DNA from: an uncultured Flavobacteriales bacterium
GTDB lineage: Bacteria; Bacteroidota; Bacteroidia; AKYH767-A; 2013-40CM-41-45
Assembly (NCBI GenBank): GCA_964355885.1
Contig: CAYHFJ010000003.1
Location: forward strand, 2,391-66,390
DNA length: 64,000 nt
Direction of reading: 5' to 3'
Shown: positions 1,032-23,328 of the stretch, one piece after another
Layout of the letters: each line of letters begins with the position of its first letter
Position numbering within the stretch: position 1 is the stretch's first letter
Made by a program: the position numbers and the translations under genes
Notes under the pieces: model-generated
What the model saw: only the letters and a program-made list of their open reading frames with translations
The model's database searches: none
What the model was told of the DNA's origin: nothing

Positions 1032-1051
1032 TTGAAGCCAATAACAAAGTC

Positions 1052-1087
1052 AAAAAAGCATCGGTTTGTGAACCGATGCTTTTTTTA
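1052..1087 (+). terminator. Rho-independent terminator after the first CDS
   Basis: Stem gcatcggtt (1058-1066), loop tgtg, stem aaccgatgc (1071-1079), then a T7 run. An A-run upstream makes it potentially bidirectional. Confidence 0.6.
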
Positions 1088-1597: not shown

Positions 1598-2761
1598 ATG
1601 AATAAACTGGAAGAAATAATCGATCACGCAAAGGAATTGTCATTTGATCTTAACTTTTCCTATGCAAAAAAATGGAAAAAAGAAGCCGCTGACAGAATTC
1701 TGGTAGGCTATCTGCCTATTTATATTCCAAGGGAAATTATACATGCCGCGAACGGACTGGGAGTAGGTACGTTTGGAGCCGGTGACCATAAGCAAATTAT
1801 TAAAGGTGATGCCTATTACCAATCCTATATATGCCATCTGCCACGCGGAATTATCGAAATGGCCTTAGATAAAAGCTTTGATGAATTTGATGGCTTTTTA
1901 TTTCCGGCTATTTGCGATTGCGTCCGCAACCTTTCGGGAATGTTCAAATTAATAAAAAAGGGGAAATTCAATCGTTACTTTGATTATCCTCAAAATTTCA
2001 ACTATAAGATAGGTGGCACATTTTATAGAGAAATGTTAGAAATAATTATAAAAGATATGCACGCCATAAATGGTGTGAAGGTTACAACACAGAAACTCAA
2101 TCATGCCATTTCCCTATTTAACACTAACAGGCAGCTCATAGAAAAATTATACGATCAGCGGCAAAAGTATCCATGGCGTATATCCGCTGCCGATTTATAT
2201 CTTATTATTCGCGCCGGAATGGTAATTCCTGTTGAGAAACATAATCAAATTCTTATAGATACACTGGATCAGTTGCAGCTGGATTTAGGAGAGCCTCTGG
2301 ATAATATCCGTGTTATTCTCAGCGGATCATTTTGTGAACAACCTCCAATCGGACTAATCAAATCAATTGAAATGGCCGGATGTTTTATCGTGGATGATGA
2401 TTTTATGCTTGGTTCACGATGGATTCAGGGAGATATCAATGATCAATCAAAAGATCCACTCGATGAACTTGTGAAAGCTTTTTTATACCAAAGCGTGGCT
2501 TCATCCGCATTATATGACATAGTAAACCCGAAAGCGGAAAAATTAATAAATAAGGTAAAATCCAGAAACGCTGATGGGGTAATCTTTTGTGCGGCGAGTT
2601 TTTGTGATCCGGCTTTACTGGATAGACCAACACTTCAAAAAGCCTGTGATGAAGCAAATATAAACCACATTAATTTTCAGTTCCATGAAAATACAGGACA
2701 ATTTAAAGTCATTAAAGAACAAGCCGGCACCTTTGCTGATTCTATAAAACTATGGGTATAA
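1598..2761 (+). CDS. bcrC: Benzoyl-CoA reductase gamma-like subunit (HGD-D family, BcrC/BadD-like)
   Basis: 387 aa. HGD-D-type Cys-containing segments (YICHLPRG, AICDCVRN, GSFCEQPP, AASFCDPA). First gene of a four-gene set with lengths 387/438/481/279 aa and an order that mirrors BcrC-B-A-D (as I recall about 386/434/438/282 aa in Thauera). Confidence 0.6.
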   Translation: MNKLEEIIDHAKELSFDLNFSYAKKWKKEAADRILVGYLPIYIPREIIHAANGLGVGTFGAGDHKQIIKGDAYYQSYICHLPRGIIEMALDKSFDEFDGFLFPAICDCVRNLSGMFKLIKKGKFNRYFDYPQNFNYKIGGTFYREMLEIIIKDMHAINGVKVTTQKLNHAISLFNTNRQLIEKLYDQRQKYPWRISAADLYLIIRAGMVIPVEKHNQILIDTLDQLQLDLGEPLDNIRVILSGSFCEQPPIGLIKSIEMAGCFIVDDDFMLGSRWIQGDINDQSKDPLDELVKAFLYQSVASSALYDIVNPKAEKLINKVKSRNADGVIFCAASFCDPALLDRPTLQKACDEANINHINFQFHENTGQFKVIKEQAGTFADSIKLWV

Positions 2762-4068
2762 ACAAAGCTATGAGCAATCCTAAAGAAGCAATTAAAGAAA
2801 AAAGCATGATCATTCAAAAACAGATGCTAAGCAATCTGTTTAAAGAATTAGGTACTGCAAAAGAAACAGGGAAAAAAGTCGTCTATACTTTTGTTCCCGG
2901 AAATCTTACAGAAATAATTCTTGCTCTTGATCTCCTGCCCGTGTATCCTGAAATCAATGCCTTGCAATCAGGCATGAGAAAACAATCGGGGACGTTTATT
3001 AAAGATGCCGAAAAATATGGACATTCCGAAGATGTCTGCACCTATGTAAAATGCGATATCGGCATGATGCTCAATGGAAATATCGGGCCTACCGGAGAAA
3101 AGATTCCCGAACCCGACATTTTATTATTGAGCTATACAGGTTGTTTCACATTTATGAAATGGTTTGAAAACCTGGAAAAAATTTATCCGAATGCTGAAAT
3201 CATCATGCTTCATACGCCATATCAGGAGAACGGAGAAATTACGGATGATATGGTGGAATACATGACAAAGCAATTAAAAAACGACGTGATTCCAAGAATG
3301 GAAAAAGTGGCCGGAAAAAAACTGGATTATAAAAAACTATCCAAAATATTATCCAATTCAGCAAAAGCGGAAGATTACTGGGTCAAAGTACTAGAATCCG
3401 CGAAGCATACACCCTCACCTATTGATTCATATTTCGCAGGAGTGTATTATATGGGTCCTATTTTCTCCGCATTCAGAGGCACAGAAGAAGCCGTTGAGTA
3501 CTACAAGGAACTGCTCTCTGAGGTGGAAGACAGGATTGAAAAAGGGCTGGGACCGGTCACGCCGGAAGGTGAAATGAAAGAAGAAAAATTCAGGCTGGTA
3601 GTGGAAGGGCCTCCAAACTGGACCAACTTCCGGGAGTTCTGGAAAATATTTTATGATATGGGAGCAGTCATCGTCGCGTCGACTTATACAAAGGTTGGCG
3701 GTGTCTATGATCAGGGATTTCGTCATGACCCGGATCATCCATTGGAAACCATGTCAAGATATTGCATGGGATGTTACACTAATTTAAATCTGCCACAACG
3801 AGTGGACTTGATCGAAAAGTATATAAAAGAATATAAAGCAGACGGCTTCCTTATCAATTCAATTAAGAGTTGCAATTCATTCTCAGCAGGACAGTTGTTG
3901 ATGATGCGGGAAATTGAACAAAGGCTGAGTGTTCCTGTAGGATTCATTGAATCAGATCTTGTAGATCCCAGATATTTCTCCTATGCAAACATTAAGAACA
4001 GACTTGAATCATATTTTCAAATGCTGGAGCAAAGAAAATTAATTATGTCACAAGAAATTATAAAATAA
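2752..4068 (+). CDS. bcrB: Benzoyl-CoA reductase beta-like subunit (HGD-D family, BcrB/BadE-like)
   Basis: 438 aa. HGD-D-like segments VVYTFVPGNLTEIILALDLLPVYPE, DVCTYVKCD, YTGCFTFMKW and IKSCNSFS. Overlaps the upstream stop by 10 nt; an alternative in-frame ATG lies at 2770. Confidence 0.6.
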   Translation: MGINKAMSNPKEAIKEKSMIIQKQMLSNLFKELGTAKETGKKVVYTFVPGNLTEIILALDLLPVYPEINALQSGMRKQSGTFIKDAEKYGHSEDVCTYVKCDIGMMLNGNIGPTGEKIPEPDILLLSYTGCFTFMKWFENLEKIYPNAEIIMLHTPYQENGEITDDMVEYMTKQLKNDVIPRMEKVAGKKLDYKKLSKILSNSAKAEDYWVKVLESAKHTPSPIDSYFAGVYYMGPIFSAFRGTEEAVEYYKELLSEVEDRIEKGLGPVTPEGEMKEEKFRLVVEGPPNWTNFREFWKIFYDMGAVIVASTYTKVGGVYDQGFRHDPDHPLETMSRYCMGCYTNLNLPQRVDLIEKYIKEYKADGFLINSIKSCNSFSAGQLLMMREIEQRLSVPVGFIESDLVDPRYFSYANIKNRLESYFQMLEQRKLIMSQEIIK

Positions 4069-4084
4069 TTCATAAACTGAAGAC

Positions 4085-5530
4085 ATGCAGAAGTATTATC
4101 TCGGAGTTGATTTAGGTTCGACAACATCCAAAGCTGTAATCATCAATGACAAAGATGAAATTATTGGTCGTGGAATCACGAACACCCGTGCCAATTATAA
4201 TGTAGCCGCCGACATTGCACGAATGGAGGCTATATATAATGCCCGATTTTCCATACTCAAAAAAAAGCTTGACACTGAAATCCAACAGAAACCTGAGTAT
4301 AGAAAATACATTTCGGATCTGGAAAATGTATTTCAATACGAACAATTCAAGGTGAGACTGGACAATCTGGGAGAAAAACTGATTACTACCTGTGAAAGTT
4401 TTTTCAAAGACGAAGAAACGAGGTCAAAGATGGTTGAGCAACTAAGGAATATCAGAAGGGCTTTCAAACCCAAAATTAAATACGAATATTTATATAAAAA
4501 TCTTAGTGATAAAAATCAATTCTTCAGAGATATTGTATCGGAAAGATACAATGAAGAAGTCAATAAACTTGACTCAAGTTTTTTTGAACCCTTGATGACG
4601 GTATGGGACAAAAGTATTACACCTGCAGAAAACGAAATTATAAATTTTGATTTCAAGGCTTTGGTACATATGGCCATGAACGTCTTGAAAGAAAAATATG
4701 ACAATCTTCCTGATTTGCCACAGAATACAAAGATTGTAGATGATGATGATTTTGATGTTGAATTATATTTGCTCAAAGGTGAGTTCGATCATGTTTCCAG
4801 TTCACTCCGAACTCATGTGGATGAAATCACCGACATAGAATTTCAAATTGAAAACATGACAGGAACAGGCTATGGCAGGGCACTGTTGCCATTTCCGGCC
4901 GATTGTATCCGATCAGAAATCCTTTGTCATGCATTTGGTGCTCATGCCTTTTTCCCGAATACCAGAACGGTACTGGACATTGGTGGTCAGGATACAAAAG
5001 CCATTCAGGTGGATCAATACGGCCTGGTTACCAGTTTTCAAATGAACGACAGATGTGCCGCCGGTTGCGGAAGATATCTGGGTTATATAGCTGATGAGAT
5101 GAGTATATCATTGAATGAACTGGGACCTTTAGCTATGAAAGCGGAAAAAGAAGTAACCATCTGTTCTACCTGCACTGTTTTTGCCGGAGCGGAATTGAGG
5201 GAATTGACAAATCTTGGAGAGAAACGGGAAGATATTCTTGGTGGGCTACATAAAGCAATTGTCATGCGTGCGATGTCTTTGCTCGCACGTTCAGGAGGTG
5301 TGTTCAATGAATTTACATTTACGGGTGGGGTGGCACGAAATCTATCAGTTGTAAAGCATCTTACAGATCTGGTAAAAGAAAATTACGGCGATAAAATTAA
5401 AATCAATATTCATACTGACTCCATATTTATGGGAGCCATGGGTGGGGCTATGTTCGCCAGAAGAAACATGCAAGCCATTGTACCTTCCAACAAACAAAAT
5501 TCCGTTCAAGAAAAACCGGCAACCGCCTAA
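4085..5530 (+). CDS. bcrA: Benzoyl-CoA reductase alpha-like ATPase subunit (BcrAD_BadFG/ASKHA family, long form)
   Basis: 481 aa. N-terminal phosphate loop YYLGVDLGSTTSKAVI, DIGGQDTKAI, and a cluster-ligand Cys pair in NDRCAAGCGRYLG and CSTCTVFAGAE. A ~200-aa insertion after the first loop makes it the large ATPase partner. Confidence 0.65.
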   Translation: MQKYYLGVDLGSTTSKAVIINDKDEIIGRGITNTRANYNVAADIARMEAIYNARFSILKKKLDTEIQQKPEYRKYISDLENVFQYEQFKVRLDNLGEKLITTCESFFKDEETRSKMVEQLRNIRRAFKPKIKYEYLYKNLSDKNQFFRDIVSERYNEEVNKLDSSFFEPLMTVWDKSITPAENEIINFDFKALVHMAMNVLKEKYDNLPDLPQNTKIVDDDDFDVELYLLKGEFDHVSSSLRTHVDEITDIEFQIENMTGTGYGRALLPFPADCIRSEILCHAFGAHAFFPNTRTVLDIGGQDTKAIQVDQYGLVTSFQMNDRCAAGCGRYLGYIADEMSISLNELGPLAMKAEKEVTICSTCTVFAGAELRELTNLGEKREDILGGLHKAIVMRAMSLLARSGGVFNEFTFTGGVARNLSVVKHLTDLVKENYGDKIKINIHTDSIFMGAMGGAMFARRNMQAIVPSNKQNSVQEKPATA

Positions 5531-5548
5531 ACCATCAAAGTTGAGACT

Positions 5549-6388
5549 ATGGAAACTATTTTAACAATGGGTATCGATGTTGGAAGTAATTTCATCAAAC
5601 TAATTTTAATGAAATATTCCGATGAGCCGGAAATTCTGGACAAGCAAACTGAAAAGATCAGAAAGCGTGACCCCATCTTTGTTGCTGATGAGATGGTACA
5701 AACCATGCTTACCAAGCATAAATTAAAATATAATGATATAGCCTATCTCGCTTCAACGGGAGAAGGTGATTTAGTCAAAAAAAAACGTGGGCATTTTTAT
5801 GGAATGACCACTCACGCGAAAGGTGCTCACTTTCTGTTTCCCGAAGCAAGAACAGTCGTAGATATGGGCGCACTATTTGTCCGGGCTATAAAAGTTGGGA
5901 GTGATGCACGTGTGCTTGATTATAAAATGACAGGGCAATGCGCTTCCGGTTCAGGGCAGTTTCTGGAAAACATATCGAGGTATCTTGGATTATCAATTGA
6001 AGAAGTTGGAGAGGTATCCATCAGTTCGGACAACCCGGAGGTATCATCAGGCATTTGTGCTGTTCTGGCAGAGACTGATGTCATTAATATGGTATCCAGA
6101 GGAGTTAGCACTCCGAACATCATAAAAGGTATTCATCTTTCCATCGCATCAAGAATTGTCAAGCTGTTAAGTTCACTCAAATCAGATTCTCCTATCATTT
6201 TAACCGGAGGAATGGCCTTGAATACCGGGATGATTCAAGCTCTCAATGAAAACATTCAGGAAAGCAGTAAGAAGTTTGAAATTAAAGCTTCTCCGGATTC
6301 CATTTATGCAGGTGCTATTGGCGCGGCGATATGGGGTGGTTACCGTCATTACAAACTAATAGAAAAAGCCGAAGTAGGGAACCAATAA
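5549..6388 (+). CDS. bcrD: Benzoyl-CoA reductase delta-like ATPase subunit (BcrAD_BadFG/ASKHA family, short form)
   Basis: 279 aa. Motifs MGIDVGSNFIKLIL, MTGQCASGSGQFLE, SSGICAVLAETDVI and LTGGMALN. A second, non-identical ATPase directly after the first, as expected for the heterodimeric BCR electron-activating module. Confidence 0.65.
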   Translation: METILTMGIDVGSNFIKLILMKYSDEPEILDKQTEKIRKRDPIFVADEMVQTMLTKHKLKYNDIAYLASTGEGDLVKKKRGHFYGMTTHAKGAHFLFPEARTVVDMGALFVRAIKVGSDARVLDYKMTGQCASGSGQFLENISRYLGLSIEEVGEVSISSDNPEVSSGICAVLAETDVINMVSRGVSTPNIIKGIHLSIASRIVKLLSSLKSDSPIILTGGMALNTGMIQALNENIQESSKKFEIKASPDSIYAGAIGAAIWGGYRHYKLIEKAEVGNQ

Positions 6389-6395
6389 TTGACAA

Positions 6396-8132
6396 ATGAA
6401 CATACTTCAATCCAGTCAGAAATTAAGCAGCACTTTCCCGAATATTGCAAGCCTATTGAAAACTAATACACAGCGGTTTTCCAATAGAATAGTTTATCAG
6501 GAAAAGGTCAAAGAAAATTATGAAGGCATCAGCTGGACAGATATTTACAATGACATTCTGAATATCGCCGGTAATCTTAAACAACTGGGTTTTTCAAAAG
6601 GTGATAAAATGGTTTTTTATTCACCCAACAGAAAGGAGATGCTCGAACTGGAATTGGCGGTGATGTCCATAGGCGGTATTGCGGTTCCTATCTACGCATG
6701 GTTTTCGCAAGAAACCGCTGAACTTTTAATCCGACACTCTGAAGCGAAATACCTGGCGGTATCAGGAGAATATCAACTACGAAATCTTTCATCAAACCTA
6801 GGTTTAAATAAAATCATTGTTTTTGATCCAATCGAAAGTTACCCGGGTTTAGGAAGGCTGGAGCTTTTCACTCATCTCCTGGAAGAAAGAAGCGATTCTT
6901 CTATTTCACTCGACATTCATGCATCCCCCGATGACAATTGCCTGAACATGTATACCTCCGGTACCATGGGCATTCCTAAATGTGTACAATTGTCACACAA
7001 AAATATACTATCCCAACAAGCCGGTTTGGATGCACTTGGCTGGTGGAATATCAATGAGAATGATCGATTTCTATCCTATTTACCATGGCATCACAGCTTC
7101 GGAGGGATATTTGAGTTATTCAATGCTCTTTCTCATGGAGCGACCTATTCACTGGAATCAAGCTATGGAAAGAATGTAAATAGCATTATTGAAAACTGGA
7201 AAATCATTCAACCTACTGTTTTTTTTAGTGTACCCAAAATTTATCAAGCTCTTTTCGAAATATTAAAAGAAAACCCTGAGGTAGAAGCACAGTTTTTTCA
7301 TCCCGATTTAAAATTTGTTTTTACTGCAGCGGCAACCTTACCTGAAAGTTTAACTAAAGAATTTGAAAAAAGAAATATTCCAGTAATAGAAGGATGGGGT
7401 CTTACGGAAACATCTCCTTGTTGCACGCTCACTCATCCAGGAATAAAAAGATCAAAAGGTATTGTTGGTAAACCCATTCCCGGGGTGAGTATCCGGATCT
7501 CTGACGACAATGAGATACAGGTTATGGGACCTAACGTAATGAAAGGTTATTTTAAAAATGACGAAGCCAATAAAAATATTTTTACAGAAGATGGATGGTT
7601 CAGAACAGGTGATATTGGAGAAATTACGGATGAAGGAATAAAATTAATTACCCGTAAAGATCGCATTTTCAAACTATCCAATGGAGAGAAAGTTATAGCC
7701 ACAGAGATGGAAGCACTTATCATGGCAAAATGCCATTACATTTCTTTTGCTATTGTATCAGGCAGCGGAGAGGAATATCCAGTGGCCATATTATTTCCCA
7801 ATAAAAAATTGTTACAAAACCCAACCTATGAAATCTCGCCGGTTGAAGGATGTTTTTGCCCAAGAAATCTTGCGGAGTTGGGCAAATGCTTACATGGTTG
7901 TCTTCATGACGCCAATTGTGGTATAGGGCAAAAATTCTCAAAAATAAAATCAGCGATTATCATTGATGATGAATTAAGCATTGAAAATAGTACGTTGACG
8001 CCATCCATGAAAGTGGCTCCTAATAATGTAATGAATATTTATAAGGCACATCTGGAAAATTTACATGGCGAAAAAAATGAATTAAAAGAAGAAGTTTTCA
8101 TCATCCGTTTAGACACCGCCAAAACAAGATGA
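6396..8132 (+). CDS. AMP-forming acyl-CoA ligase (ANL superfamily, long-chain/ACSL-like architecture)
   Basis: 578 aa. Motifs YTSGTMGIPKCVQLSHKN, GWGLTETS, TGDIGEITDEGIKLITRKDRIFKLSNGEKV and C-terminal LTPSMKV. Confidence 0.8.
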   Translation: MNILQSSQKLSSTFPNIASLLKTNTQRFSNRIVYQEKVKENYEGISWTDIYNDILNIAGNLKQLGFSKGDKMVFYSPNRKEMLELELAVMSIGGIAVPIYAWFSQETAELLIRHSEAKYLAVSGEYQLRNLSSNLGLNKIIVFDPIESYPGLGRLELFTHLLEERSDSSISLDIHASPDDNCLNMYTSGTMGIPKCVQLSHKNILSQQAGLDALGWWNINENDRFLSYLPWHHSFGGIFELFNALSHGATYSLESSYGKNVNSIIENWKIIQPTVFFSVPKIYQALFEILKENPEVEAQFFHPDLKFVFTAAATLPESLTKEFEKRNIPVIEGWGLTETSPCCTLTHPGIKRSKGIVGKPIPGVSIRISDDNEIQVMGPNVMKGYFKNDEANKNIFTEDGWFRTGDIGEITDEGIKLITRKDRIFKLSNGEKVIATEMEALIMAKCHYISFAIVSGSGEEYPVAILFPNKKLLQNPTYEISPVEGCFCPRNLAELGKCLHGCLHDANCGIGQKFSKIKSAIIIDDELSIENSTLTPSMKVAPNNVMNIYKAHLENLHGEKNELKEEVFIIRLDTAKTR

Positions 8133-8133
8133 T

Positions 8134-9357
8134 ATGTTTGAAATAAAATGCAAAGAGAAGTTAAAGATATTGATGGACGGCTACTTCCAGTCATTCCTAA
8201 CAAAGGAAAAACCGGTAGCATGGTGTACCAGTGTGGGTCCGGCAGAGTTACTACGTTCTTTTGGATTCGAAGTTTATTTTCCGGAAAATCATGGTGCACT
8301 TTTAGGGTCCACCAGAACCGCGATGGATTTCATCCCAGCCTCAATCAAAAATGGTTATTCCAATCATATATGCTCCTACACTACAAGTGATATTGGAGCA
8401 TTCCTGTCTGGAAAGACTCCACTGGAAAAACACTATGGCCTATCTGCTGTTCCAACACCGGATTTGATCGTGTACAATACGAATCAATGCCGGGAGGTAG
8501 AAGACTGGTTTACCTTTTACGCGACACAATTTAATTGTCCTATTGCAGGAATTCATCCGCCAAGACATCTTAATGAGGTAAATCAAGATGTAATTGATTT
8601 AGTTGTGAAACAATTCAAATCAATTATTCCAATTTGCGAAAAAACTTCAGGAAATGAATTTGATATCGATCAATTCAGGGAGGTTCTGAGAATTAGCAAG
8701 GAAGCGACCTTGCTATGGAAAAAAGTATTAGAAACAGCAAGAGTGAGTCCGGCACCTATTTCATTCTTTGACGGCGTGATACATATGGGTCCTATCGTCG
8801 TTTTGAGAGGGCGGCAGGACGCTTACGATTATTATGCAGAGCTTCTTGCAGAATTGACGGAGTACAACAAAAACAAACAAGGATTTCTTGAAAAAGAAAA
8901 TAGTCGCATATTTTGGGAAGGAATGCCGATTTGGGGCAAACTAAGGATGATGTCGGATTTATTCAAAGAAAACAATGCCGCGGTAGTTGCCTCGACCTAT
9001 TGCAACAGTTGGATATTTGATGACTTTGACGAAAGGCAACCCTTTGAAAGCTCCGCACTGGCTTATACCCAATTATTTATCAACCGTAGCGAAAGTGTGA
9101 AAATGGAAATGCTGAAAAAATGGGTAGATGATTATCGTATTGATGGAATAGTCTTTCATGATACAAAGACCTGCTTTAATAATTCCAATGCCAAATTCGG
9201 AATGCCATTAAGAATAAAGGAAAAATATAAAATACCAACTTTGGTAATCGAAGGAGACCTTTGTGATTTACGATTTTTCTCCGAAGGACAAAGTATTACA
9301 AAAATCGAAACATTCCTTGAACAGATAGATGCAAAGAAACATACGGTTCAACAATGA
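8134..9357 (+). CDS. Orphan single HGD-D family protein (2-hydroxyacyl-CoA dehydratase / YjiM / double-cubane-cluster-protein-like)
   Basis: 407 aa. Family-typical segments PVAWCTSVGPAELLRSFGFEVYFPENH, NHICSYTTSD, NTNQCREV, ASTYCNSW and HDTKTCFNNS. The start lies 1 nt after the ligase stop, and its own stop overlaps the next start (ATGA). No second HGD-D partner gene is adjacent. Confidence 0.65.
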   Translation: MFEIKCKEKLKILMDGYFQSFLTKEKPVAWCTSVGPAELLRSFGFEVYFPENHGALLGSTRTAMDFIPASIKNGYSNHICSYTTSDIGAFLSGKTPLEKHYGLSAVPTPDLIVYNTNQCREVEDWFTFYATQFNCPIAGIHPPRHLNEVNQDVIDLVVKQFKSIIPICEKTSGNEFDIDQFREVLRISKEATLLWKKVLETARVSPAPISFFDGVIHMGPIVVLRGRQDAYDYYAELLAELTEYNKNKQGFLEKENSRIFWEGMPIWGKLRMMSDLFKENNAAVVASTYCNSWIFDDFDERQPFESSALAYTQLFINRSESVKMEMLKKWVDDYRIDGIVFHDTKTCFNNSNAKFGMPLRIKEKYKIPTLVIEGDLCDLRFFSEGQSITKIETFLEQIDAKKHTVQQ

Positions 9358-11204: not shown

Positions 11205-11210
11205 CAACTT

Positions 11211-12476: not shown

Positions 12477-12478
12477 AA

Positions 12479-13540: not shown

Positions 13541-13551
13541 AATAAAACTGC

Positions 13552-15427: not shown

Positions 15428-15437
15428 ATCAACTATA

Positions 15438-17429
15438 ATGAAAAACATAAAAACAATAGGTGTAATAGGTGCCGGAAAAATGGGATCCGCCCTCGCGCAA
15501 AAATTTGCACAGGAAAATTTCAACGTCATACTGTGTGACCAAACCAATGTATTAGTAGAAACTGGATTAGGAAGTATAACAACTTCGTTTAATGAAGGTG
15601 TGGAAAAGCAAGTGTTCAGCAAGGAACAGATTACCGGATATTTATCTAAGCTGCATGGCACAATTGATCTGAAGGAATTACATGTTTGTGATTTAATAAT
15701 TGAAGCTATTTATGAAGATTTTAAAGCTAAATCGGAATTATTCAAAAGGCTGGAAAAAATTATTACTAAAGAAACAATATTAGCGACAAACACATCCTCC
15801 TTCTCTGTTACGGAATTATCCGGCGAATTAAATCACCCCGAAAGATTCATTGGATTACATTATTTCTACCATGCCGCCAAAAACCGGTTGGTGGAAATTA
15901 TTCCAGGGAAACTTACGAATCAGGAAACTTACGAATCCGCCAAAGCATTTTCTGTTCTATCGGGAAAGGATGCTATTATCAGCAAGGATTCATATGGCTT
16001 CATTGTAAACAGATATTTTGTACCATGGCTTAACGAAGCTACAAGAATGCTCGAAGAAAACCTGACAAACATCCCAACTATTGAAGATGTCTGTATTAAA
16101 GTTTTTGGCATAGGCATGGGTCCCTTTGCATTGATGAACGCAACCGGCATCCCGGTGGCATACCATTCGCAAAAAACATTGGAATCACTCGGATCGTTTT
16201 ATACTGTTTCAAAGAAATTAAAATCGCAATCAGATTCTAAACAAGAATGGAATCTGGAAGGAAAGATTTCCGAGGAAGTCAGTATAAGGAATACTGTTAA
16301 GGAGCGAATGTTAGGTGTAATTTTTCTGATTTGCTCTCAATTACTGGATGAAAAAGTATGCTCTGCAACCGACATAAACAGAGGCAGCAGAATTGGTTTA
16401 AAATGGAAGAAAGGGCCAGTGGAGCTAATGAGTCAGACCGGGGAAGAGGAAGTAAAACAATTAATTGGGCAGATTGCAAAGAAATATAAAATGGAGTTGC
16501 CAAAATCCATAGGAGAAAAATTTTGGCACATGGAATCAGTGACACTGGAAAAAAATAAAAACATTGCAGTTATCACGATGAATCAACCTGAAAATCTAAA
16601 TGCCTTATGTGAAAAATCAATGCAACAATTGCATGAAAATTTTTCATTGGCTGATAATGACGATACAATCGACACTATTTTTATAACAGGATCTGGAAAA
16701 ACATTTGTTGCAGGTGCTGATATCAAGTTTTTCATAAATAAAATTAAATCGAATCAAATTCAAGATATCATAGCCTTTACCCACTACGGACAAAAAATAT
16801 TTGATGCAATTGACAAATCACGTAAAAATGTTGTTGCTGTTCTCAACGGTCCAACTTTAGGAGGAGGCCTTGAATTAGCACTGTGTGCAGACATGATAAT
16901 CGCTACCCCTAAAGCGACTTTAGCCTTTCCAGAAACAGGAATAGGAATCTTTCCGGGATTATGCGGCACATACCGTGCTCAGAAAAAAATTGGTAAAGGA
17001 CTGGCAAAATATCTGGTTATGACGGGTAAAATGCTGAATGCAAGTGACGCCCAAACAATTGGGCTTGTGGACGCAATTGTTGATCCGGCAGAAGCTATGC
17101 TCTTTATGAATGGATCACAAAAGCTACCACGAAAAGAGTCTAAAAAGTTAACTGCCCAATGGGATACTATCCGTACTATTTTTGAGAACCAAACTATAAA
17201 CGAACTGATTGATGCTGCTGATTTAAGTAAAAATTCAGAAGTTATTACTAACATAGCACATATCCTGAAACAAAAAGCGCCTCTTGCGTTAAAGATTACT
17301 GAACAACTCATGGAAGAAAGTAAGCGGCCTTGCAGTGACTTAGAAAATATTCGAATGATATTCAGCACAGAGGATGCCTTGCTTGGATTAAGTAATATTG
17401 GAAAACAAGTACATTTTTCATCGAAATGA
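15438..17429 (+). CDS. Bifunctional 3-hydroxyacyl-CoA dehydrogenase (N-terminal) / enoyl-CoA hydratase (C-terminal)
   Basis: Start chosen at MKNIKTIGVIGAGKMGSALAQKF (ATG 15438), because the ORF-track start at 15363 overlaps dch. NTSSFSV lies in the dehydrogenase half. ITGSGKTFVAGADIKFF and LNGPTLGGGLELALCADMIIA lie in the C-terminal crotonase half. Confidence 0.8.
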   Translation: MKNIKTIGVIGAGKMGSALAQKFAQENFNVILCDQTNVLVETGLGSITTSFNEGVEKQVFSKEQITGYLSKLHGTIDLKELHVCDLIIEAIYEDFKAKSELFKRLEKIITKETILATNTSSFSVTELSGELNHPERFIGLHYFYHAAKNRLVEIIPGKLTNQETYESAKAFSVLSGKDAIISKDSYGFIVNRYFVPWLNEATRMLEENLTNIPTIEDVCIKVFGIGMGPFALMNATGIPVAYHSQKTLESLGSFYTVSKKLKSQSDSKQEWNLEGKISEEVSIRNTVKERMLGVIFLICSQLLDEKVCSATDINRGSRIGLKWKKGPVELMSQTGEEEVKQLIGQIAKKYKMELPKSIGEKFWHMESVTLEKNKNIAVITMNQPENLNALCEKSMQQLHENFSLADNDDTIDTIFITGSGKTFVAGADIKFFINKIKSNQIQDIIAFTHYGQKIFDAIDKSRKNVVAVLNGPTLGGGLELALCADMIIATPKATLAFPETGIGIFPGLCGTYRAQKKIGKGLAKYLVMTGKMLNASDAQTIGLVDAIVDPAEAMLFMNGSQKLPRKESKKLTAQWDTIRTIFENQTINELIDAADLSKNSEVITNIAHILKQKAPLALKITEQLMEESKRPCSDLENIRMIFSTEDALLGLSNIGKQVHFSSK

Positions 17430-18040
17430 TTTCTGATTCAAAAACATCAGCGCTAATTCTTGCGGCAGGAAACTCTTCCAGAATGAGAACCCAGAAAGCA
17501 CTTCTCCGATTTGAAGACGAAAACACTTTTCTCGAAAACACAATTGAAACTTATATTCGATTTGGAGTTGAACAGCTCGGAGTTGTCGTCTCTCCCCTAT
17601 TGGCACAACAAATCCCCACTAAAATCAAGTCGGCTTTAAGACATCCCAACGTTCTTCTAATAATCAATGAATCTCCTGAAAAGGGGCGATTCTCCTCTAT
17701 AAAATTAGGTCTTTCCGCCTTGAAAGATTGCGACTATTGTTTTCTGCAAAACATTGACAACCCTTTCATTGATCAATATTTACTAAACATAATTTACGAA
17801 TACAAAAATAAGGGTGGATATACAGTGCCCTATTTTAATGATAAAGGTGGCCACCCTATTTTAATTTCAAATAAAATTATTACATACATAAAAAGAACTC
17901 CTGACCACAATATAAATTTGAGACATCTGCTAACCCTGTTTCAAAAGGTTATTGTAAACACAGGCGACCATAAAATTCTCGCGAACATCAACTCACCACT
18001 TGATTATAAGTACTATTTTCAAACAGTAAAATTAACATAA
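17426..18040 (+). CDS. MobA/MocA-like molybdenum-cofactor nucleotidyltransferase
   Basis: 204 aa. Motifs ALILAAGNSSRM...KALL and KGGHPILI. ATGA overlap with the upstream gene. Confidence 0.6.
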   Translation: MISDSKTSALILAAGNSSRMRTQKALLRFEDENTFLENTIETYIRFGVEQLGVVVSPLLAQQIPTKIKSALRHPNVLLIINESPEKGRFSSIKLGLSALKDCDYCFLQNIDNPFIDQYLLNIIYEYKNKGGYTVPYFNDKGGHPILISNKIITYIKRTPDHNINLRHLLTLFQKVIVNTGDHKILANINSPLDYKYYFQTVKLT

Positions 18041-18042
18041 GC

Positions 18043-18573
18043 ATGCACTCCAAAGCCATAGAATTAATGTATCATGAGCATGATATTATTTTAAAGGCCA
18101 TCTCACAACTAAAACAAATCCTGTCAACTGATGATTTAGTTTCTGGTGCAGGAAAAATCCAGTGGTACATTAAATTCTTCAAAGAGTATGGGGACAACTT
18201 TCATCATCGTAAAGAGGAAGATATTCTTTTCAACATACTTGGGAGCAAAAACGAAATGCTCGCCGGTGGTTTAGTGGATGAATTAACAGATCATCATAGT
18301 CAATTTCGCCACGCCTTAGGCGAATCGGAAATATTCTTACAAAATTCCGACTTAAAAAACGCGAAGAAAACACTAATGGCCTACATGAACGACCTGACGG
18401 ATCACATTGGAGCAGAAAACGATGAATTATTTGTAAGCGCGGAAATGATACTGAATGAAAGCGAAAAAGAAAAGCTTTATTTCTTGTTTATGGATAGTGA
18501 TAATGAATTAAATACTGAAACAAAAAAAGATTTCGAAAATTTAATTTTGAACCCCCACTACATATATGAATAA
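18043..18573 (+). CDS. Hemerythrin-like (HHE cation-binding) domain protein
   Basis: 176 aa with spaced His/Glu motifs HEHD, HHRKEEDILF, DHHSQF and DHIGAENDELF. Confidence 0.6.
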   Translation: MHSKAIELMYHEHDIILKAISQLKQILSTDDLVSGAGKIQWYIKFFKEYGDNFHHRKEEDILFNILGSKNEMLAGGLVDELTDHHSQFRHALGESEIFLQNSDLKNAKKTLMAYMNDLTDHIGAENDELFVSAEMILNESEKEKLYFLFMDSDNELNTETKKDFENLILNPHYIYE

Positions 18574-19303
18574 GCGAATTGCAATTGTTACCGGAGCGGC
18601 TAATGGGATCGGGAAAGCCATTTCAAAAAGACTCACTTCCGAGGATTACTTTGTGATTCTTGCGGATATCAATAAAGCAGAAGGCAAAGATACTGAAATT
18701 GAATTAGGCACTGAAAAATCCCTGTTTATTTATTGCGACTGCAGCAATGAGAATAATGTGCTTCAACTCTTTCAAACGTTATATGATAAATTCAAAAGAA
18801 TAGACATTTTGGTAAATAATGCAGGAATTATCAGAGATAATATGATATGGAATATGCCGATTGAGGATTTTAACCTTGTCATGGATGTCAACCTGAAAGC
18901 AAGCTGGCTCATGTGCCGTGAAGCAGCCAAAGTTATGAAAGTCCAGAGGAGTGGCCGGATCGTAAACATCACTTCCCGCGCCTGGCTAGGCAATCGGGGG
19001 CAATCCAATTATTCAGCATCAAAAGCCGGAGTCATCGGACTAACACGAGTGCTGGCTCTTGAACTTGGTAAATACAATGTTCTGGTCAATGCCATTGCAC
19101 CAGGATTAATTGATACTCCATTAACACAAAAATTAGATAAAGAAGTTTTAGACAAACTAATAAATGCCCAACCAACAAATACTATGGGAAGGCCGGAAGA
19201 TATCGCTCATGTCGTTTCCTTCCTTGTATCAGACAAAACAAATTTTATTACAGGTCAAACTATTTATGTGGATGGTGGGAAAAGCATAGGAGCCGGAATT
19301 TAA
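18566..19303 (+). CDS. Short-chain dehydrogenase/reductase (FabG-like)
   Basis: 245 aa. Motifs VTGAANGIGKAI, NNAGI, YSASKAG and PGLIDTP. Confidence 0.85.
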   Translation: MNKRIAIVTGAANGIGKAISKRLTSEDYFVILADINKAEGKDTEIELGTEKSLFIYCDCSNENNVLQLFQTLYDKFKRIDILVNNAGIIRDNMIWNMPIEDFNLVMDVNLKASWLMCREAAKVMKVQRSGRIVNITSRAWLGNRGQSNYSASKAGVIGLTRVLALELGKYNVLVNAIAPGLIDTPLTQKLDKEVLDKLINAQPTNTMGRPEDIAHVVSFLVSDKTNFITGQTIYVDGGKSIGAGI

Positions 19304-19423
19304 TACAATGCCAATAAAATACCCGCTGGAGGAATAGTCCTATTGCTCTTAATCAGTTAAAAGAATCATAATAAATCAAAATAAATAATATCAGATACCT
19401 GATCATAGAATGGCAAATAAGAG

Positions 19424-22180
19424 ATGAAACATTTAAACCTGACAGTAAACGGTAAAGAATATCAAGTTCTTATCAAGGAGCATGAGATGCTTAGCTCTGT
19501 CCTTCGCGAGAAAATAGGTTTGACCGGAACAAAAATCGGATGTGAGCAAGGTAGTTGCGGAGCATGCACCATATTAGCCAATGATCAGCCGGTTTTAAGT
19601 TGTATCACTCCGGCATTACGATTCGAAGGAGCCAGTATTACTACAATAGAAGGGCTTTCCAATAATGGTAAATTGCATAAGCTGCAAGAAAAATTCGTGG
19701 AAAAAGGTGCCATTCAATGTGGCTTTTGTACTCCGGGAATGGTAATGACTGCCTTAGATTTTGTCAATCACAATCCAAAGCCTGACATTCAGGATATAAA
19801 AGAAGCACTTTCAGGAAACCTTTGCAGATGCACCGGTTACAAAAAAATCATAGAAGCGGTGGCAGAATTTGCCGCAGGAACAGAAGCACAATTACCTCCA
19901 GAAAATAAAGCACTTGGAGTCCCCAGACCAAACATTGAGGCGGTAAAAAAAGTACAAGGTATAGCGGAATATGCTGACGATATTAAAATTAAAAATGCAC
20001 TTCATTGCAAATTTCTGCGTAGTATATATCCTCATGCTCACATTGAGCACATTGATATATCTCTTGCAGAAAAACTACAGGGTGTACGGGCTATTTGCCT
20101 TGGTTCCGAGTTGCCTCAAAAATTTGGAGTGCTACCGATTTCACAGGACGAAACAGCCCTTGCCATCAACAAGACCAGATATATCGGTGAAATTGTTGCT
20201 GCCGTTGCCGCGGACACAGAAGAAATCGCGAAGGCAGCGTGTAGCCTTATAAAAGTCCGTTATAAACCATTAAAAGCATTCCTGACCATTGATGACTCCA
20301 TTAATGATGTCGGCGAAAACGAAAAAATTCATGCACATACAAAATTCAACAACAACATTCACAAAAAAGCCGAACTTCGATTTGGAGATCAGAAGAAAGG
20401 ATTAGAATCCGCGGAAGTTCGAAGTAAAATGAGCTTCGAATTTGAAGGAGTGAGTCACGCTTTTACCGAGCCACATGCCGCGACAGCCTATTGGGATGAA
20501 AATGGATTGACAATCATCACAGCAACTCAGGTTCCACATTATTTACATCGGGCTTTGTCAAAAGTGCTTGAAGTTCCTTTGTATAAAGTTCGGGTTATCA
20601 AACCATATATTGGAGGAGGTTTTGGTGGCAAGAGTGATCCTTTCCCTCATGAAATAATTATATCTCATCTTGCCAGAAAAAGCGGGAAACCGGTGAAAGT
20701 CAGATTTTCACGAGAAGAAGTTTTTTTGAGTAATCATGGAAGACATCCGTCAAAGATGACCGTTGAATTAGGAGCAGACAAGGAAGGTACACTTCAGGTT
20801 ATAGATGCTGATATTGACATTGACGGTGGTGCTTATGGAAGCTTTGGGGTGGTCACATCATACTATAATGGCGTGCTTTTACAGGCTCCTTACAAAATTG
20901 ACAATCTGGGATTTCGCACTTTCAGGGTTTATACAAACAAACCCCAATCAGGTGCCATGCGTGGACATGGAGCTGTAAACTCCCGTTTTGCTGTGGAGTG
21001 CATCATTGATGACTTAGCAGAAAAAATAAAAATGGATCCCTGCGAGATGAGAATGAAAAATTTTATCAGCTCAAACACCCTTACAGTAGGAGAATACAGA
21101 ATTACATCGAATGGAAGCAGGGAGTCTCTCGCGGCCGTGATGAAACAATCCGACTGGAAAAACAAATACAGAAAACTACCTTTTGGTCATGGCATTGGAG
21201 TTGGTTGCGGGTTCTTTATCAGCGGTAGTGCTTTACCAATTATAAGGAATGAATTACCACAATCTGTTGTTCATCTGAAAGTTGATTTTGATGGGAGGGT
21301 CATTATTTATTCCGGTACCAGCGATCTTGGTCAAGGAAGTGATACCATGCTTGCAATCGTCGTTTCAGAGGTGTTGGGAATAGACTTCGAAAAAATATTT
21401 GTTCTTGCCGGTGACACCATGCTTACACCGGTAGATTTAGGAAGCTATTCAAGTCGTGTGACCATGATGGCAGGCAATGCGGCTAAAATGGCCGCTGAAA
21501 ATTTGAAAAATGAAATTCTTTCAGCAGTTAGCAAACAAAAAAGTATCGCGGAGGACGAATTGAATTTTTCTGAAAACAGGGTATACTCCAATGACAAATC
21601 GCTTGACCTAAGCTGGAATGAAGCAATTGATATTGTGACAGCAAAAAGAGGAGCCATTACAGTTAGCGGTCACTACATTTCCCCTAAATTAGGCGGAAAT
21701 TTTAAAGGAGCAGGTGCAGGATTAAGTCCATCTTATAGCTTCGGAGCAGTGGTAGCTGAAGTGAAAGTTGATAAAGGCACCGGCTTAGTGAAAGTATTAA
21801 ATTTTTGGGGTGCTCATGACTGTGGGAAAGCGATAAACCCATTAGCCGTTGAAGGGCAACTGGAAGGTTCCTGGCATATGGGTCTTGGACAGGCCATGAG
21901 TGAACAAATGAAATACTTCAACGGATTAATTATGAATAATAATTTTCTTGACTACAAAATTCCCACTTCCCTTGATACACCCAATATACAGAGCACCATC
22001 ATTGAATCCATTGATCCTGAAGGACCTTTCGGTGCAAAAGAATGTGGTGAAGGCGCGCTACATCCTGCCCTGCCTGCCATTGCCAACGCTATCTACGATG
22101 CTGTAGGAATTCGCATTTTAAAATTACCAATAAGTTCAGAAGAAATATTAAAGCAGCTGAAAGAAAAACATTTACCATAG
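19424..22180 (+). CDS. Xanthine-dehydrogenase-family molybdoenzyme with fused [2Fe-2S] (gamma-like) and molybdopterin-binding (alpha-like) subunits; 4-hydroxybenzoyl-CoA reductase HcrC-HcrA-like
   Basis: 918 aa. N-terminal 150 aa: GCEQGSCGACT, CGFCTPGM and CRCTGY (two 2Fe-2S sites). Remainder: IGGGFGGKSD, SDLGQGSDTML and the active-site region GAKECGEGA. Confidence 0.75.
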   Translation: MKHLNLTVNGKEYQVLIKEHEMLSSVLREKIGLTGTKIGCEQGSCGACTILANDQPVLSCITPALRFEGASITTIEGLSNNGKLHKLQEKFVEKGAIQCGFCTPGMVMTALDFVNHNPKPDIQDIKEALSGNLCRCTGYKKIIEAVAEFAAGTEAQLPPENKALGVPRPNIEAVKKVQGIAEYADDIKIKNALHCKFLRSIYPHAHIEHIDISLAEKLQGVRAICLGSELPQKFGVLPISQDETALAINKTRYIGEIVAAVAADTEEIAKAACSLIKVRYKPLKAFLTIDDSINDVGENEKIHAHTKFNNNIHKKAELRFGDQKKGLESAEVRSKMSFEFEGVSHAFTEPHAATAYWDENGLTIITATQVPHYLHRALSKVLEVPLYKVRVIKPYIGGGFGGKSDPFPHEIIISHLARKSGKPVKVRFSREEVFLSNHGRHPSKMTVELGADKEGTLQVIDADIDIDGGAYGSFGVVTSYYNGVLLQAPYKIDNLGFRTFRVYTNKPQSGAMRGHGAVNSRFAVECIIDDLAEKIKMDPCEMRMKNFISSNTLTVGEYRITSNGSRESLAAVMKQSDWKNKYRKLPFGHGIGVGCGFFISGSALPIIRNELPQSVVHLKVDFDGRVIIYSGTSDLGQGSDTMLAIVVSEVLGIDFEKIFVLAGDTMLTPVDLGSYSSRVTMMAGNAAKMAAENLKNEILSAVSKQKSIAEDELNFSENRVYSNDKSLDLSWNEAIDIVTAKRGAITVSGHYISPKLGGNFKGAGAGLSPSYSFGAVVAEVKVDKGTGLVKVLNFWGAHDCGKAINPLAVEGQLEGSWHMGLGQAMSEQMKYFNGLIMNNNFLDYKIPTSLDTPNIQSTIIESIDPEGPFGAKECGEGALHPALPAIANAIYDAVGIRILKLPISSEEILKQLKEKHLP

Positions 22181-22181
22181 T

Positions 22182-23111
22182 TTGAAAATCATGCTTGAAG
22201 AAAACACATATTACAAACCGGCGACTTTATCGGAGGCCTTTAGTTTAGCGAAAAGTAATAAAGAAATATTTCGCTTCATGGCCGGAGGTACGGATTTCCT
22301 GGTAAATAAATTTCAGGGAACAGAATCAGCTCGATGCATCATTGACCTGACCGGGATTGCAGAATTAAAAAACATTAAAACAGAAGACGGATATCTGAAA
22401 ATCGGTTCCCTTATCCGGTTAGATGAATTAAAGAATATACCAGAAATAAAAAATGAATTTCCGGTTTTACTTGAGGCTGTTCAATCCATCGCCACTCCTG
22501 TAATCAGAAAAACGGCTACCCTTGGAGGAAACATACTCTGCGAAAACAGATGTACTTTCTTTAATCAGTCGGAATGGTGGCGTGAAGCCGTAGGATATTG
22601 CCTTAAATGTGATGGAGATATCTGTATCGCCACAGGAGGTAAAAAGGCCTGCTTTTCAAAATTTGTTTCAGATACTGCCCCAATACTGATAAGCATGAAT
22701 GCATTAATTGAAACCATAGAAGGAGAAAACGTTTCGATAAAACCATTAGAAAGTATTTATTCGGGCGATGGAACGAAGCCAAGAAACCTGTCAAAAAATA
22801 CGATTGTAAAATCGATTCATTTACCCTTACATCAACAATTCCGCTGCACTTTTACAAAGTTGAGACAAAGAGAAAGCATGGATTTTACCTCACTAAGCTT
22901 TGCAACGTCGATCACTAAATCAGGAAAAATAAAAATTGTTGTTGGCGGCGTAGATTCCAAGCCAATTGTGATAGATGGAACAGAAGACGATAACAAAAAC
23001 GAATTAATCAACCAAGCCGTTAAAAAATCCAAAATTGTTGATAATGATTTTTTCTCCAGAAATTATCGGAAAGAAATGATAAAGGTGTTTGGAGAAAATA
23101 GTTTCAAATAG
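22182..23111 (+). CDS. FAD-binding subunit of the XDH-family enzyme (CoxM/HcrB-like) with a Cys-rich insertion
   Basis: 309 aa from TTG 22182 (in-frame ATG at 22191). Motifs FMAGGTDFLV and ATLGGNI. Start is 1 nt after the upstream stop. Confidence 0.75.
   Translation: MKIMLEENTYYKPATLSEAFSLAKSNKEIFRFMAGGTDFLVNKFQGTESARCIIDLTGIAELKNIKTEDGYLKIGSLIRLDELKNIPEIKNEFPVLLEAVQSIATPVIRKTATLGGNILCENRCTFFNQSEWWREAVGYCLKCDGDICIATGGKKACFSKFVSDTAPILISMNALIETIEGENVSIKPLESIYSGDGTKPRNLSKNTIVKSIHLPLHQQFRCTFTKLRQRESMDFTSLSFATSITKSGKIKIVVGGVDSKPIVIDGTEDDNKNELINQAVKKSKIVDNDFFSRNYRKEMIKVFGENSFK
22539..22652 (+). other. Cys-rich loop in the FAD subunit (candidate extra [4Fe-4S] site)
   Basis: CENRCTFFNQSEWWREAVGYCLKCDGDICIATGGKKAC. 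Cys at residues 120, 124, 140, 143, 148 and 157, numbered from 22182. Confidence 0.55.
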
Positions 23112-23328
23112 AATAACTATTTAATATACCATCTATCATTCACGTATTATAAGTTCATGTAATATCTTTTTCTGCCCACCTCCTTCCAGTTTTGTTCAGA
23201 TTAATACAAGTTTGCATTGTTGATATAGATTTTTTAATTTTATATACATTTAAGTACAAGTTCTTCTGATAAAAATCATAAATGGAATAAATAATTCTGA
23301 TTTATTTGAAGTAATTTTAGAACATAGC

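Follow-up and report, generated by a model that had tools for sequence, protein, structure and literature searches.

The DNA analysed here is a 64,000-nucleotide stretch (the window) of contig CAYHFJ010000003.1 from an uncultured Flavobacteriales bacterium, and positions 1598-23111 of it carry a gene cluster for anaerobic aromatic degradation. Judged from its sequence, the region is very probably a chromosomal, Bacteroidota/Ignavibacteria-type version of the ATP-dependent Bcr/Thauera-type benzoyl-CoA pathway. The ORF map contains an unbroken series of 17 non-nested open reading frames (ORFs) on the plus strand; the 19 counted in a preliminary description of this DNA are reached only if the two gene fusions at 9354-11204 and 19424-22180 are counted twice each. 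The gaps of 0-120 bp and the start/stop overlaps given there were confirmed: the largest gap (120 bp) is at 19304-19423, the starts at 9354 and 17426 overlap the preceding stop by 4 nt (ATGA), and those at 2752, 14648 and 18566 do so by 10, 20 and 8 nt, respectively. Its boundaries for the reductase genes (1598-6388) and for the genes at 12479-13540, 13552-14667 and 14648-15427 were likewise all correct. GC content is uniform, at 0.37-0.415 inside the cluster and 0.36-0.46 in the rest of the window. Gene identities were assigned using NCBIfam equivalog models with curated cut-offs, Pfam, best PDB matches and synteny, with the core assignments resting on the curated profile scores and synteny.

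The four genes at 1598-6388, proposed earlier to encode a four-subunit ring reductase, keep that assignment. They stand in the order C-B-A-D and encode two HGD-D subunits (C and B) and two BcrAD_BadFG ATPases (A and D). The benzoyl-CoA reductase subunits C (bcrC, 1598-2761, HGD-D fold; TIGR02263, 451 bits, cut-off 421) and B (bcrB, 2752-4068; TIGR02260, 701 bits, cut-off 487) and the ATPase subunit D (bcrD, 5549-6388; TIGR02261, 327 bits, cut-off 313) all exceed the cut-offs of their equivalog models. The ATPase/electron-activating subunit A (bcrA, 4085-5530, 481 aa) is diverged: TIGR02259 is its best hit at 437 bits, below the cut-off of 578, and is matched in two stretches, while the Pfam domain BcrAD_BadFG covers residues 6-458. 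BcrA is 477-480 aa long in its relatives. Rival models score far lower, with 200 bits (HadB) and 96 bits (BzdO) for BcrB versus 701 for its own model, and 158 bits (HadC) and 71 bits (BzdN) for BcrC versus 451. The best PDB match of BcrB is MbdO of 3-methylbenzoyl-CoA reductase (198 bits); the class assignment is one of profile scores against equivalog cut-offs, the PDB holding MbdO and BzdO and no Thauera BcrB. A plasmid tblastn search for reference Bcr gave matches at only 22-26% identity, mostly annotated as the 2-hydroxyacyl-CoA dehydratase family. The scores support the prediction that the four genes encode a Bcr/Thauera-type class I benzoyl-CoA reductase, and neither dehydratases nor a Bzd-type enzyme.

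The ring-processing genes follow further along the same strand. Both had (12479-13540; 6-hydroxycyclohex-1-ene-1-carbonyl-CoA dehydrogenase; TIGR03201, 442 bits, cut-off 339) and oah/bamA (13552-14667; ring-cleaving 6-oxocyclohex-1-ene-1-carbonyl-CoA hydrolase; TIGR03200, 596 bits, cut-off 464) exceed their equivalog cut-offs, in agreement with the identities first given to them. The second-best family of Oah is BadI, at 116 bits. By profile score, the reductase subunits are thus not dehydratase-like and the 371-aa crotonase does not fall outside Oah/BamA. The dienoyl-CoA hydratase call at 14648-15427 stands in part: cyclohexa-1,5-diene-1-carbonyl-CoA hydratase (TIGR03189) is the best hit at 210 bits, followed by a second family at 142 bits, and dch is syntenic behind oah in relatives, but the score lies under the equivalog cut-off of 292.5, and we list the gene as probable dch. 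The dehydrogenase/hydratase and thiolase genes were also confirmed. The thiolase (acetyl-CoA C-acyltransferase) lies at 11211-12476 (TIGR01930, 370 bits, cut-off 241), and profile matches identify a FadB-like bifunctional protein with an N-terminal 3-hydroxyacyl-CoA dehydrogenase and a C-terminal enoyl-CoA hydratase at 15438-17429. The start of the latter was revised from 15363 to 15438 (MKNIKT..., MKNIKTIGVIGAGKMG), the most likely start, which lies 10 nt past the dch stop and fits the 663-667 aa homologues. In the predicted pathway, BcrCBAD would reduce benzoyl-CoA to the cyclic dienoyl-CoA, Dch would hydrate it, Had would oxidise the product, and Oah/BamA would open the ring to 3-hydroxypimeloyl-CoA, whose chain the bifunctional dehydrogenase/hydratase and the thiolase would then shorten. 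The segment from benzoyl-CoA to 3-hydroxypimeloyl-CoA appears complete, and enzymes predicted to carry out one more round of beta-oxidation are present.

The downstream end of the cluster (17426-23111, plus strand) resembles a 4-hydroxybenzoyl-CoA reductase module. It starts with a MocA-like molybdenum-cofactor nucleotidyltransferase (17426-18040, profile matches), a hemerythrin HHE-domain protein (18043-18573; PF01814, 55 bits) and a FabG-like short-chain dehydrogenase/reductase (SDR; 18566-19303, profile matches), and ends with two Hcr-like genes. The first of these (19424-22180) encodes a 918-aa fusion of a gamma [2Fe-2S] subunit, with the gamma-type module at residues 3-150, and an alpha (Mo) subunit (TIGR03194, 808 bits, below the cut-off of 995); the gamma part scores 176 bits against an equivalog cut-off of 258. 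The second (22182-23111) encodes the beta, FAD/[4Fe-4S] subunit (TIGR03195, 211 bits, below the cut-off of 405). Thauera HcrCAB is the nearest structure: the alpha part matches HcrA (1rm6_A) at 574 bits, with the next structure at 351 bits, the gamma part matches 1rm6_C at 154 bits, and the beta subunit matches 1rm6_B at 148 bits. In the beta subunit, LCENRCTF...YCLKCDGDICIA...KACF aligns with LCQDTRCTF...YCLKYKGDKCHV...DRCY of 1rm6_B, with all five cysteines of the Cys-rich insertion loop aligned. In 4-hydroxybenzoyl-CoA reductase, this insertion holds the extra [4Fe-4S] cluster that sets the enzyme apart in the xanthine-oxidase family, with cysteines of the loop as its ligands. Since all the Hcr parts score below their equivalog cut-offs, we label them "Hcr-like, probably 4-hydroxybenzoyl-CoA reductase", and the funnel enzyme of this kind named in the preliminary description is retained with that qualification. 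Such a molybdenum enzyme, formed by the hcrCA fusion and hcrB and matured by MocA, would strip the para-hydroxyl group from 4-hydroxybenzoyl-CoA, and the MocA-like protein fits its maturation. The SDR gene is kept beside hcr or bcr genes across several phyla. The hemerythrin gene recurs beside mocA, SDR and hcr genes in many relatives from the Fibrobacterota-Chlorobiota-Bacteroidota (FCB) group, at 33-52% identity; its product might sense or scavenge O2 or NO, or shield oxygen-labile Fe-S enzymes.

Between bcrD and the thiolase gene lie three plus-strand genes (6396-11204) that are foreign to the Thauera scheme and that the name "Thauera-type" leaves unexplained, making it incomplete as a description. 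This conserved block of a ligase, a HadB-like protein and a fusion protein, for which we found no prior explanation, is the most interesting content of the region. The ligase (6396-8132, 578 aa) is an AMP-forming acyl-CoA ligase recognised by generic NCBIfam families (PRK06187, 224 bits; PRK12582, 189 bits full length). In the PDB it is most similar to oxalate-, FadD13- and malonyl-CoA ligases. Its 26 PDB matches (E<1e-20) include no wild-type benzoate-CoA ligase, the benzoate-ligase-related entries being only malonyl-CoA synthetase/benzoate-CoA ligase chimeras (4gxq and 4gxr), and no benzoate-CoA ligase model occurs among its top 25 NCBIfam families. The second gene (8134-9357) encodes a lone HadB-like subunit of the 2-hydroxyacyl-CoA dehydratase alpha/BcrB superfamily, which scores 211 bits with the HadB model (cut-off 750) and 164 bits with the BcrB model, also far under its cut-off; it matches HadB (PDB 3o3m_A) at 156 bits with three cysteines aligned. 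It has no beta partner in the window or in relatives, each cluster holding just three HGD-D genes.

The third gene of the block (9354-11204), translationally coupled to the HadB-like gene (ATGA at 9354), encodes a fusion recognised from profile, PDB and motif matches. Its residues 12-320 belong to the ketopantoate-reductase (KPR) family and contain GxGxxG and conserved Lys/Asn/Glu motifs, and the nearest structures are the Enterococcus proteins 2ew2 and 3wfi, the latter of which we take to be a D-mandelate dehydrogenase. D-mandelate dehydrogenase belongs among the D-2-hydroxyacid dehydrogenases and, within these, to the ketopantoate-reductase family; the Enterococcus faecalis enzyme favours hydrophobic C3-branched 2-oxoacids, e.g., 2-ketoisovalerate and benzoylformate (PMC4230899). 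Residues 358-600 form a HadI/HgdC-type activase, i.e., an ATPase with a bridging [4Fe-4S] cluster (TIGR00241, 176 bits, above the cut-off of 125), in which the cluster-binding motifs NDKCAAGTG and sfCTVFAkTE are conserved versus 4eht_A and both cysteines are present. The NCBI annotation of the fusion proteins is "2-dehydropantoate 2-reductase" only. Together, the three genes are predicted to supply the four functions of the clostridial 2-hydroxyacyl-CoA dehydratase route, namely the reductase, CoA activation, the dehydratase-like subunit and the activase. A role of the KPR-family domain in feeding NAD(P)H electrons to the activase was considered and appears chemically implausible for hydride-transfer enzymes with no flavin. 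Our literature search yielded no link between benzoyl-CoA reductase and either a lone HadB-like protein or a fusion of ketopantoate reductase and activase, and nothing on 2-hydroxyacyl-CoA dehydratase, benzoyl-CoA reductase and ketopantoate reductase combined.

The distribution of the cluster was scanned using BcrB as the query in one genome per GTDB species, with gene context taken from loci chosen through BcrB or through the closest relatives of the fusion. At least 594 BcrB relatives exist; the best 80, at 66-84% identity, all come from metagenome-assembled genomes (MAGs), with no isolate among them. About 65 of these 80 carry Bacteroidota, Flavobacteriales, Chitinophagales/Saprospiraceae, Ignavibacteria, Chlorobiota, Calditrichaceae or Bacteroidales labels (BcrB at 70-84% identity), and those of Planctomycetota and Thermoanaerobaculia come next (66-69%). 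Several cluster-bearing MAGs were deposited under implausible names (Bifidobacteriaceae, Gammaproteobacteria and Isosphaeraceae among loci L003, L006, L031 and L068), which makes record titles unreliable for taxonomy. According to tblastn with all window proteins and to context look-ups, the common FCB layout has two divergent arms, with hcrB, hcrCA, SDR, (hemerythrin), (XdhC) and mocA upstream, and bcrC-B-A-D, ligase, HadB-like gene, KPR-family/activase fusion, thiolase, had, oah, dch and the fadB-like gene on the other side. The window is a colinear variant in which the hcr module has shifted downstream. The closest relative of the fusion (locus L085, 73% identity) keeps the divergent hcr|bcr layout, so the colinear order of the window represents a local rearrangement. 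At 554-1390 of L085, a gene for an XdhC-type molybdenum-cofactor chaperone lies between mocA and the hemerythrin gene, where the window has none.

Most FCB loci have the block linked to bcrCBAD, with identities of 62-72% and 44-61%. Clustering at 90% identity divides the fusion family into at least 120 clusters, whose proteins are 57-73% identical to that of the window, and its named members are all FCB MAGs. In Bacteroidales/Chlorobiota-type loci, the block is unfused and rearranged: the KPR-family gene stands alone before had (L065, 15658-16617) and the HadB-like gene follows dch. In place of the AMP-forming ligase, these loci have an ADP-forming acyl-CoA synthetase, a non-orthologous replacement; in Bacteroidales-type relatives it occupies the ligase position behind bcrD and is a protein of 693-695 aa with CoA_binding, Succ_CoA_lig and ATP-grasp_5 domains (L065, 13546-15627; L042, 6250-8337). 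The bcr clusters of Planctomycetota and Thermoanaerobaculia (had-oah-dch-bcrCBAD-SDR) lack the block, and no thiolase or fadB-like gene was found within 10 kb of them. Among the loci chosen through BcrB or the closest relatives of the fusion, the block is specifically and persistently linked to bcr in FCB lineages.

These data bear on the earlier suggestion that the cluster extends the known distribution of the pathway. The same cluster occurs in dozens of public FCB MAGs, and an omics-level statement in a study published in 2021 already has the dominant Flavobacteriales (koll-22) MAG 18 of a nitrate-reducing benzene bioreactor expressing enzymes of anaerobic benzoyl-CoA degradation, together with peptidases and peptide uptake systems (PMC8099898). 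Elsewhere, one of 49 MAGs with pathways for the mineralisation of lignin-derived monomers belonged to Bacteroidota, a phylum described as "rarely reported" for this function (PMC11704145), and bcr genes were assigned to Krumholzibacteriota, a lineage of the FCB superphylum (PMC10936416). The region represents a known pathway in a form typical of the FCB lineages, which is abundant in public MAGs, with no isolate among the 80 best BcrB matches. With the genes this abundant and expression reported, the presence of the pathway in the phylum is only modestly new.

As for the block, we tentatively propose that it is a funnel from phenylpyruvate or phenyllactate and their 4-hydroxy analogues, derived from Phe/Tyr or phenylpropanoids, into benzoyl-CoA, built around a single-subunit and probably homodimeric dehydratase. 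In such a route, the KPR-family domain would act first, reducing an aryl-2-oxoacid to its (R)-2-hydroxyacid, and the ligase would convert the aryl 2-hydroxyacid to its CoA ester. The HadB-like subunit, primed by the fused activase, would then carry out a ketyl-radical dehydration to cinnamoyl-CoA or 4-coumaroyl-CoA, which the FadB-like enzyme and the thiolase would cleave to benzoyl-CoA or 4-hydroxybenzoyl-CoA plus acetyl-CoA. From these products on, the pathway would continue with the Hcr-like enzyme and BcrCBAD. This scheme gives each gene a role and agrees with the scavenging of peptides that was reported for the Flavobacteriales MAG. The sequence phenylpyruvate, phenyllactyl-CoA, cinnamoyl-CoA, benzoyl-CoA has been proposed, speculatively, for a sulphate-reducing benzene degrader (PMC13416013).

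Several points weigh against the funnel or against the assignment of the region as a whole. Known 2-hydroxyacyl-CoA dehydratases are alpha/beta heterodimers, and the window has one subunit; to our knowledge, a single-subunit dehydratase is without precedent. Known systems of this kind also use a CoA-transferase and not a ligase. The substrate of the ligase is not readable from its sequence, and it could simply be a benzoate ligase. The cluster has no aminotransferase, and the hydratase/dehydrogenase and the thiolase are already needed for 3-hydroxypimeloyl-CoA, so that their presence does not discriminate. All enzyme roles in this organism are predictions from sequence; BcrA, Dch, HcrA and HcrB are all under their curated cut-offs; and the linkage of the block to bcr holds for context loci that were all selected through BcrB or the closest relatives of the fusion. 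The statement that the cluster is complete and covers every step is overstated. The six frames of the 64-kb window contain no ferredoxin motif (CxxCxxCxxxC[P/G/A]), the window has no ferredoxin-reducing oxidoreductase, no acyl-CoA dehydrogenase family member, and hence no glutaryl-CoA dehydrogenase, was found among its scanned ORFs, and the ligase does not resemble benzoate-CoA ligases. The cluster is not self-sufficient: genes for ferredoxin, for the system that reduces it and for glutaryl-CoA dehydrogenase must lie elsewhere.

The absence of ferredoxin and glutaryl-CoA dehydrogenase from the window also speaks against a complete, self-contained Thauera-type pathway for benzoate and 4-hydroxybenzoate, a possible reading in which the ligase would be a benzoate/4-hydroxybenzoate CoA ligase and the HadB-like protein and the fusion would be accessory or irrelevant. 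The core enzymes of such a pathway are well supported, the ligase gene lies directly behind bcrD, and variant clusters place a CoA-activating enzyme at the same position. But the ligase matches generic fatty-acyl, oxalate and malonyl-CoA ligases and not wild-type benzoate-CoA ligase, and the HadB-like gene and the fusion are intact, coupled, conserved at 44-72% and kept in synteny from order to order, evidence that they have a real role. Such a role could instead lie in the lower pathway, with the block running a 2-hydroxyglutaryl-CoA dehydratase-type sequence in reverse (glutaconyl-CoA to 2-hydroxyglutaryl-CoA, 2-hydroxyglutarate and 2-oxoglutarate) or handling another aliphatic dicarboxylate. 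The cluster lacks a glutaryl-CoA dehydrogenase, the block adjoins the thiolase expected to release glutaryl-CoA, and some variants have a reversible ADP-forming CoA synthetase, all of which would suit this idea. We nevertheless consider it unlikely, because an AMP-forming ligase works towards activation, the route would also need a non-decarboxylating glutaryl-CoA dehydrogenase and none is present, and the KPR-family domain is nearest to 2ew2 and 3wfi, the D-mandelate dehydrogenase of E. faecalis preferring hydrophobic C3-branched 2-oxoacids (PMC4230899).

The two remaining alternatives question the benzoyl-CoA pathway itself. The HGD-D and BcrAD_BadFG folds are common to all archerase-type enzymes and BcrA is under its cut-off, so the "reductase" might be a 2-hydroxyacyl-CoA dehydratase or another such enzyme in a cluster that is not aromatic. 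This is very improbable given the scores of BcrB (701 versus 200 bits for HadB) and BcrC (451 versus 158 bits for HadC), with three of the four subunits exceeding equivalog cut-offs, and given the Oah/BamA and Had equivalogs in the same operon and the conservation of this linkage across phyla. An assembly chimera or binning artefact, in which a proteobacterial aromatic island was joined to a Bacteroidota contig, is more improbable still. The colinear placement of hcr does differ from the divergent layout of relatives, and for the right junction (23112-23328) exact-sequence look-ups of the serine palmitoyltransferase downstream of it and of HcrCA gave no independent assembly for comparison. However, two other assemblies match the window at 1-10781 (99.96% identity, one indel) and 64-4865 (100%), and since both independently reproduce the left junction, it is real. 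In addition, the GC content is uniform, each cluster gene has its best relatives in FCB MAGs, often on contigs 0.1-3.6 Mb long, and genes for cargo proteins of the type IX secretion system (T9SS) flank the cluster in other genomes too, including L042.

The host is placed in Bacteroidota by its T9SS genes, a CFB-type serine palmitoyltransferase and the relatives of its DnaE, in accord with the preliminary description, whose T9SS cargo, PorV-like barrel, dnaE, trxA, ruvC and greA in the flanks were all confirmed. Por_Secre_tail domains occur in the products of 30-1031, 29654-31852 and 36054-45038, a PorV/PorQ-family protein is encoded at 57382-58458 (147 bits, cut-off 90), trxA lies at 48293-48613, and dnaE, ruvC and greA are also in the window. 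DnaE has a 100% match on one NCBI contig and a 92% match in MAG GCA_004295015.1, and its named relatives are all uncultured Bacteroidota/Bacteroidia. No integrase or transposase was found among the scanned ORFs of at least 110 aa, as had been stated. In the assembly matching window 1-10781 (L081), a low-coverage assembly of the same organism, the indel splits bcrA into calls of 232 and 261 aa; the intact 477-480 aa bcrA of relatives indicates that the window version is the correct one.

A 566-bp intergenic region precedes bcrC. At its left end, directly after the upstream gene, a perfect 15-bp hairpin with A/T runs on either side (1052-1085, unstranded) is likely the terminator of the upstream T9SS cargo gene and marks the left edge of the cluster. 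An inverted repeat with perfect 10-nt arms, AAAAATATTC-9 nt-GAATATTTTT (1483-1511, unstranded), lies about 90 nt before bcrC starts and is a possible operator or regulator binding site. A sigma-70 promoter scan, which does not cover Bacteroidota promoters, was at chance level (68 versus 61), as was an intrinsic-terminator scan (14 versus 15), in which the hairpin at 1052-1085 was the sole standout, and Rfam gave zero matches across the window at the gathering threshold.

Directly downstream of the cluster and on the same strand, 23329-26710 holds a trio of genes that is probably sphingolipid-related: the one for the CFB-type serine palmitoyltransferase (651 bits, cut-off 640), one for a GNAT-domain protein of 375 aa and one for a member of the NAD-dependent epimerase/dehydratase family. 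The product of 36054-45038 (minus strand) is a T9SS cargo protein of 2994 aa that combines a CotH kinase domain with lamin-tail domains and 21 CHU_C-associated Ig-like repeats, and this region has the highest GC content of the window (0.44-0.46). A 647-aa protein of the MauG/MbnH-like di-haem cytochrome c peroxidase family (45270-47213, minus strand) has an N-terminal extension of about 320 aa. Two ORFs gave no Pfam or NCBIfam match: 26846-29431 (plus strand, 861 aa) and 58485-62720 (minus strand, 1411 aa), the latter immediately upstream of the PorV/PorQ-family gene.

Proteobacteria, Desulfobacterota and a few Firmicutes are usually credited with the degradation of aromatics in the absence of oxygen, and the earlier remark that the studied class I pathways are proteobacterial is not strictly right, given that one has been studied biochemically in the archaeon Ferroglobus placidus as well. 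A class I cluster conserved across uncultured Bacteroidota and Ignavibacteria would alter this picture of anaerobic aromatic degraders. The cluster-bearing MAGs originate from lakes, groundwater, wastewater and bioreactors. Lineages of Bacteroidota and Ignavibacteria are usually seen as degraders of polymers and necromass, and the cluster suggests that they can also mineralise aromatic rings without oxygen. If the proposed funnel is true, it would constitute a new peripheral pathway for the oxygen-independent mineralisation of Phe and Tyr in protein-scavenging FCB bacteria. It would also represent a new architecture of an ATP-dependent radical enzyme, with a single subunit and an activase fused to a dehydrogenase, and would combine two ATP-driven radical enzymes of one superfamily in a single operon.

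Compared with bcrCBAD, dch, had and oah of Thauera aromatica, the window shares the ATP-dependent reductase of four subunits, their gene order (C-B-A-D) and the subsequent modified beta-oxidation of the Dch/Had/Oah type. The NCBIfam equivalogs are the best models for all seven window genes, five of which pass the cut-off. The window differs from the Thauera system in having no ferredoxin gene, diverged BcrA and Dch below the cut-off and a Bacteroidota host; in uniting the hcr-like genes, MocA, hemerythrin and SDR within one module; and in the ligase/HadB-like/KPR-family-activase block inserted between bcrD and had. In T. aromatica HcrCAB (PDB 1RM6/1SB3), the alpha match, the Cys-rich beta insertion and the gamma-type [2Fe-2S] domains are shared with the window, whereas gamma and alpha form one polypeptide in the latter. 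MbdONQP (PDB 9G87/9GAI) and BzdNOPQ (PDB 8S02) are solved class I reductases. MbdO is the structure nearest to BcrB, and MbdQ and MbdP match the activase domain of the window; with respect to BzdNOPQ, the window subunits score as Bcr-type instead (96 bits with the BzdO model and 71 bits with the BzdN model).

The clostridial systems HadBC and HadI with LdhA/HadA, and the phenyllactate dehydratase FldABC with FldI, resemble the block in the HadB-like subunit with its three aligned cysteines, in the HadI-type activase with both Cys motifs, and in the operon linkage of D-2-hydroxyacid-dehydrogenase and CoA-activating functions. In contrast to them, the window has a single HGD-D subunit, which scores far below the HadB cut-off (211 bits, cut-off 750), and not an alpha/beta pair, a dehydrogenase that is joined to the activase and comes from the ketopantoate-reductase family and not from the D-LDH family, and an AMP-forming ligase (in variants an ADP-forming synthetase) with no family III CoA-transferase, all embedded in a bcr cluster. 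Finally, the koll-22 MAG 18 is, like the source of the window, an uncultured member of Bacteroidota with enzymes of anaerobic benzoyl-CoA degradation, as far as the omics-level statement in that report goes (PMC8099898).

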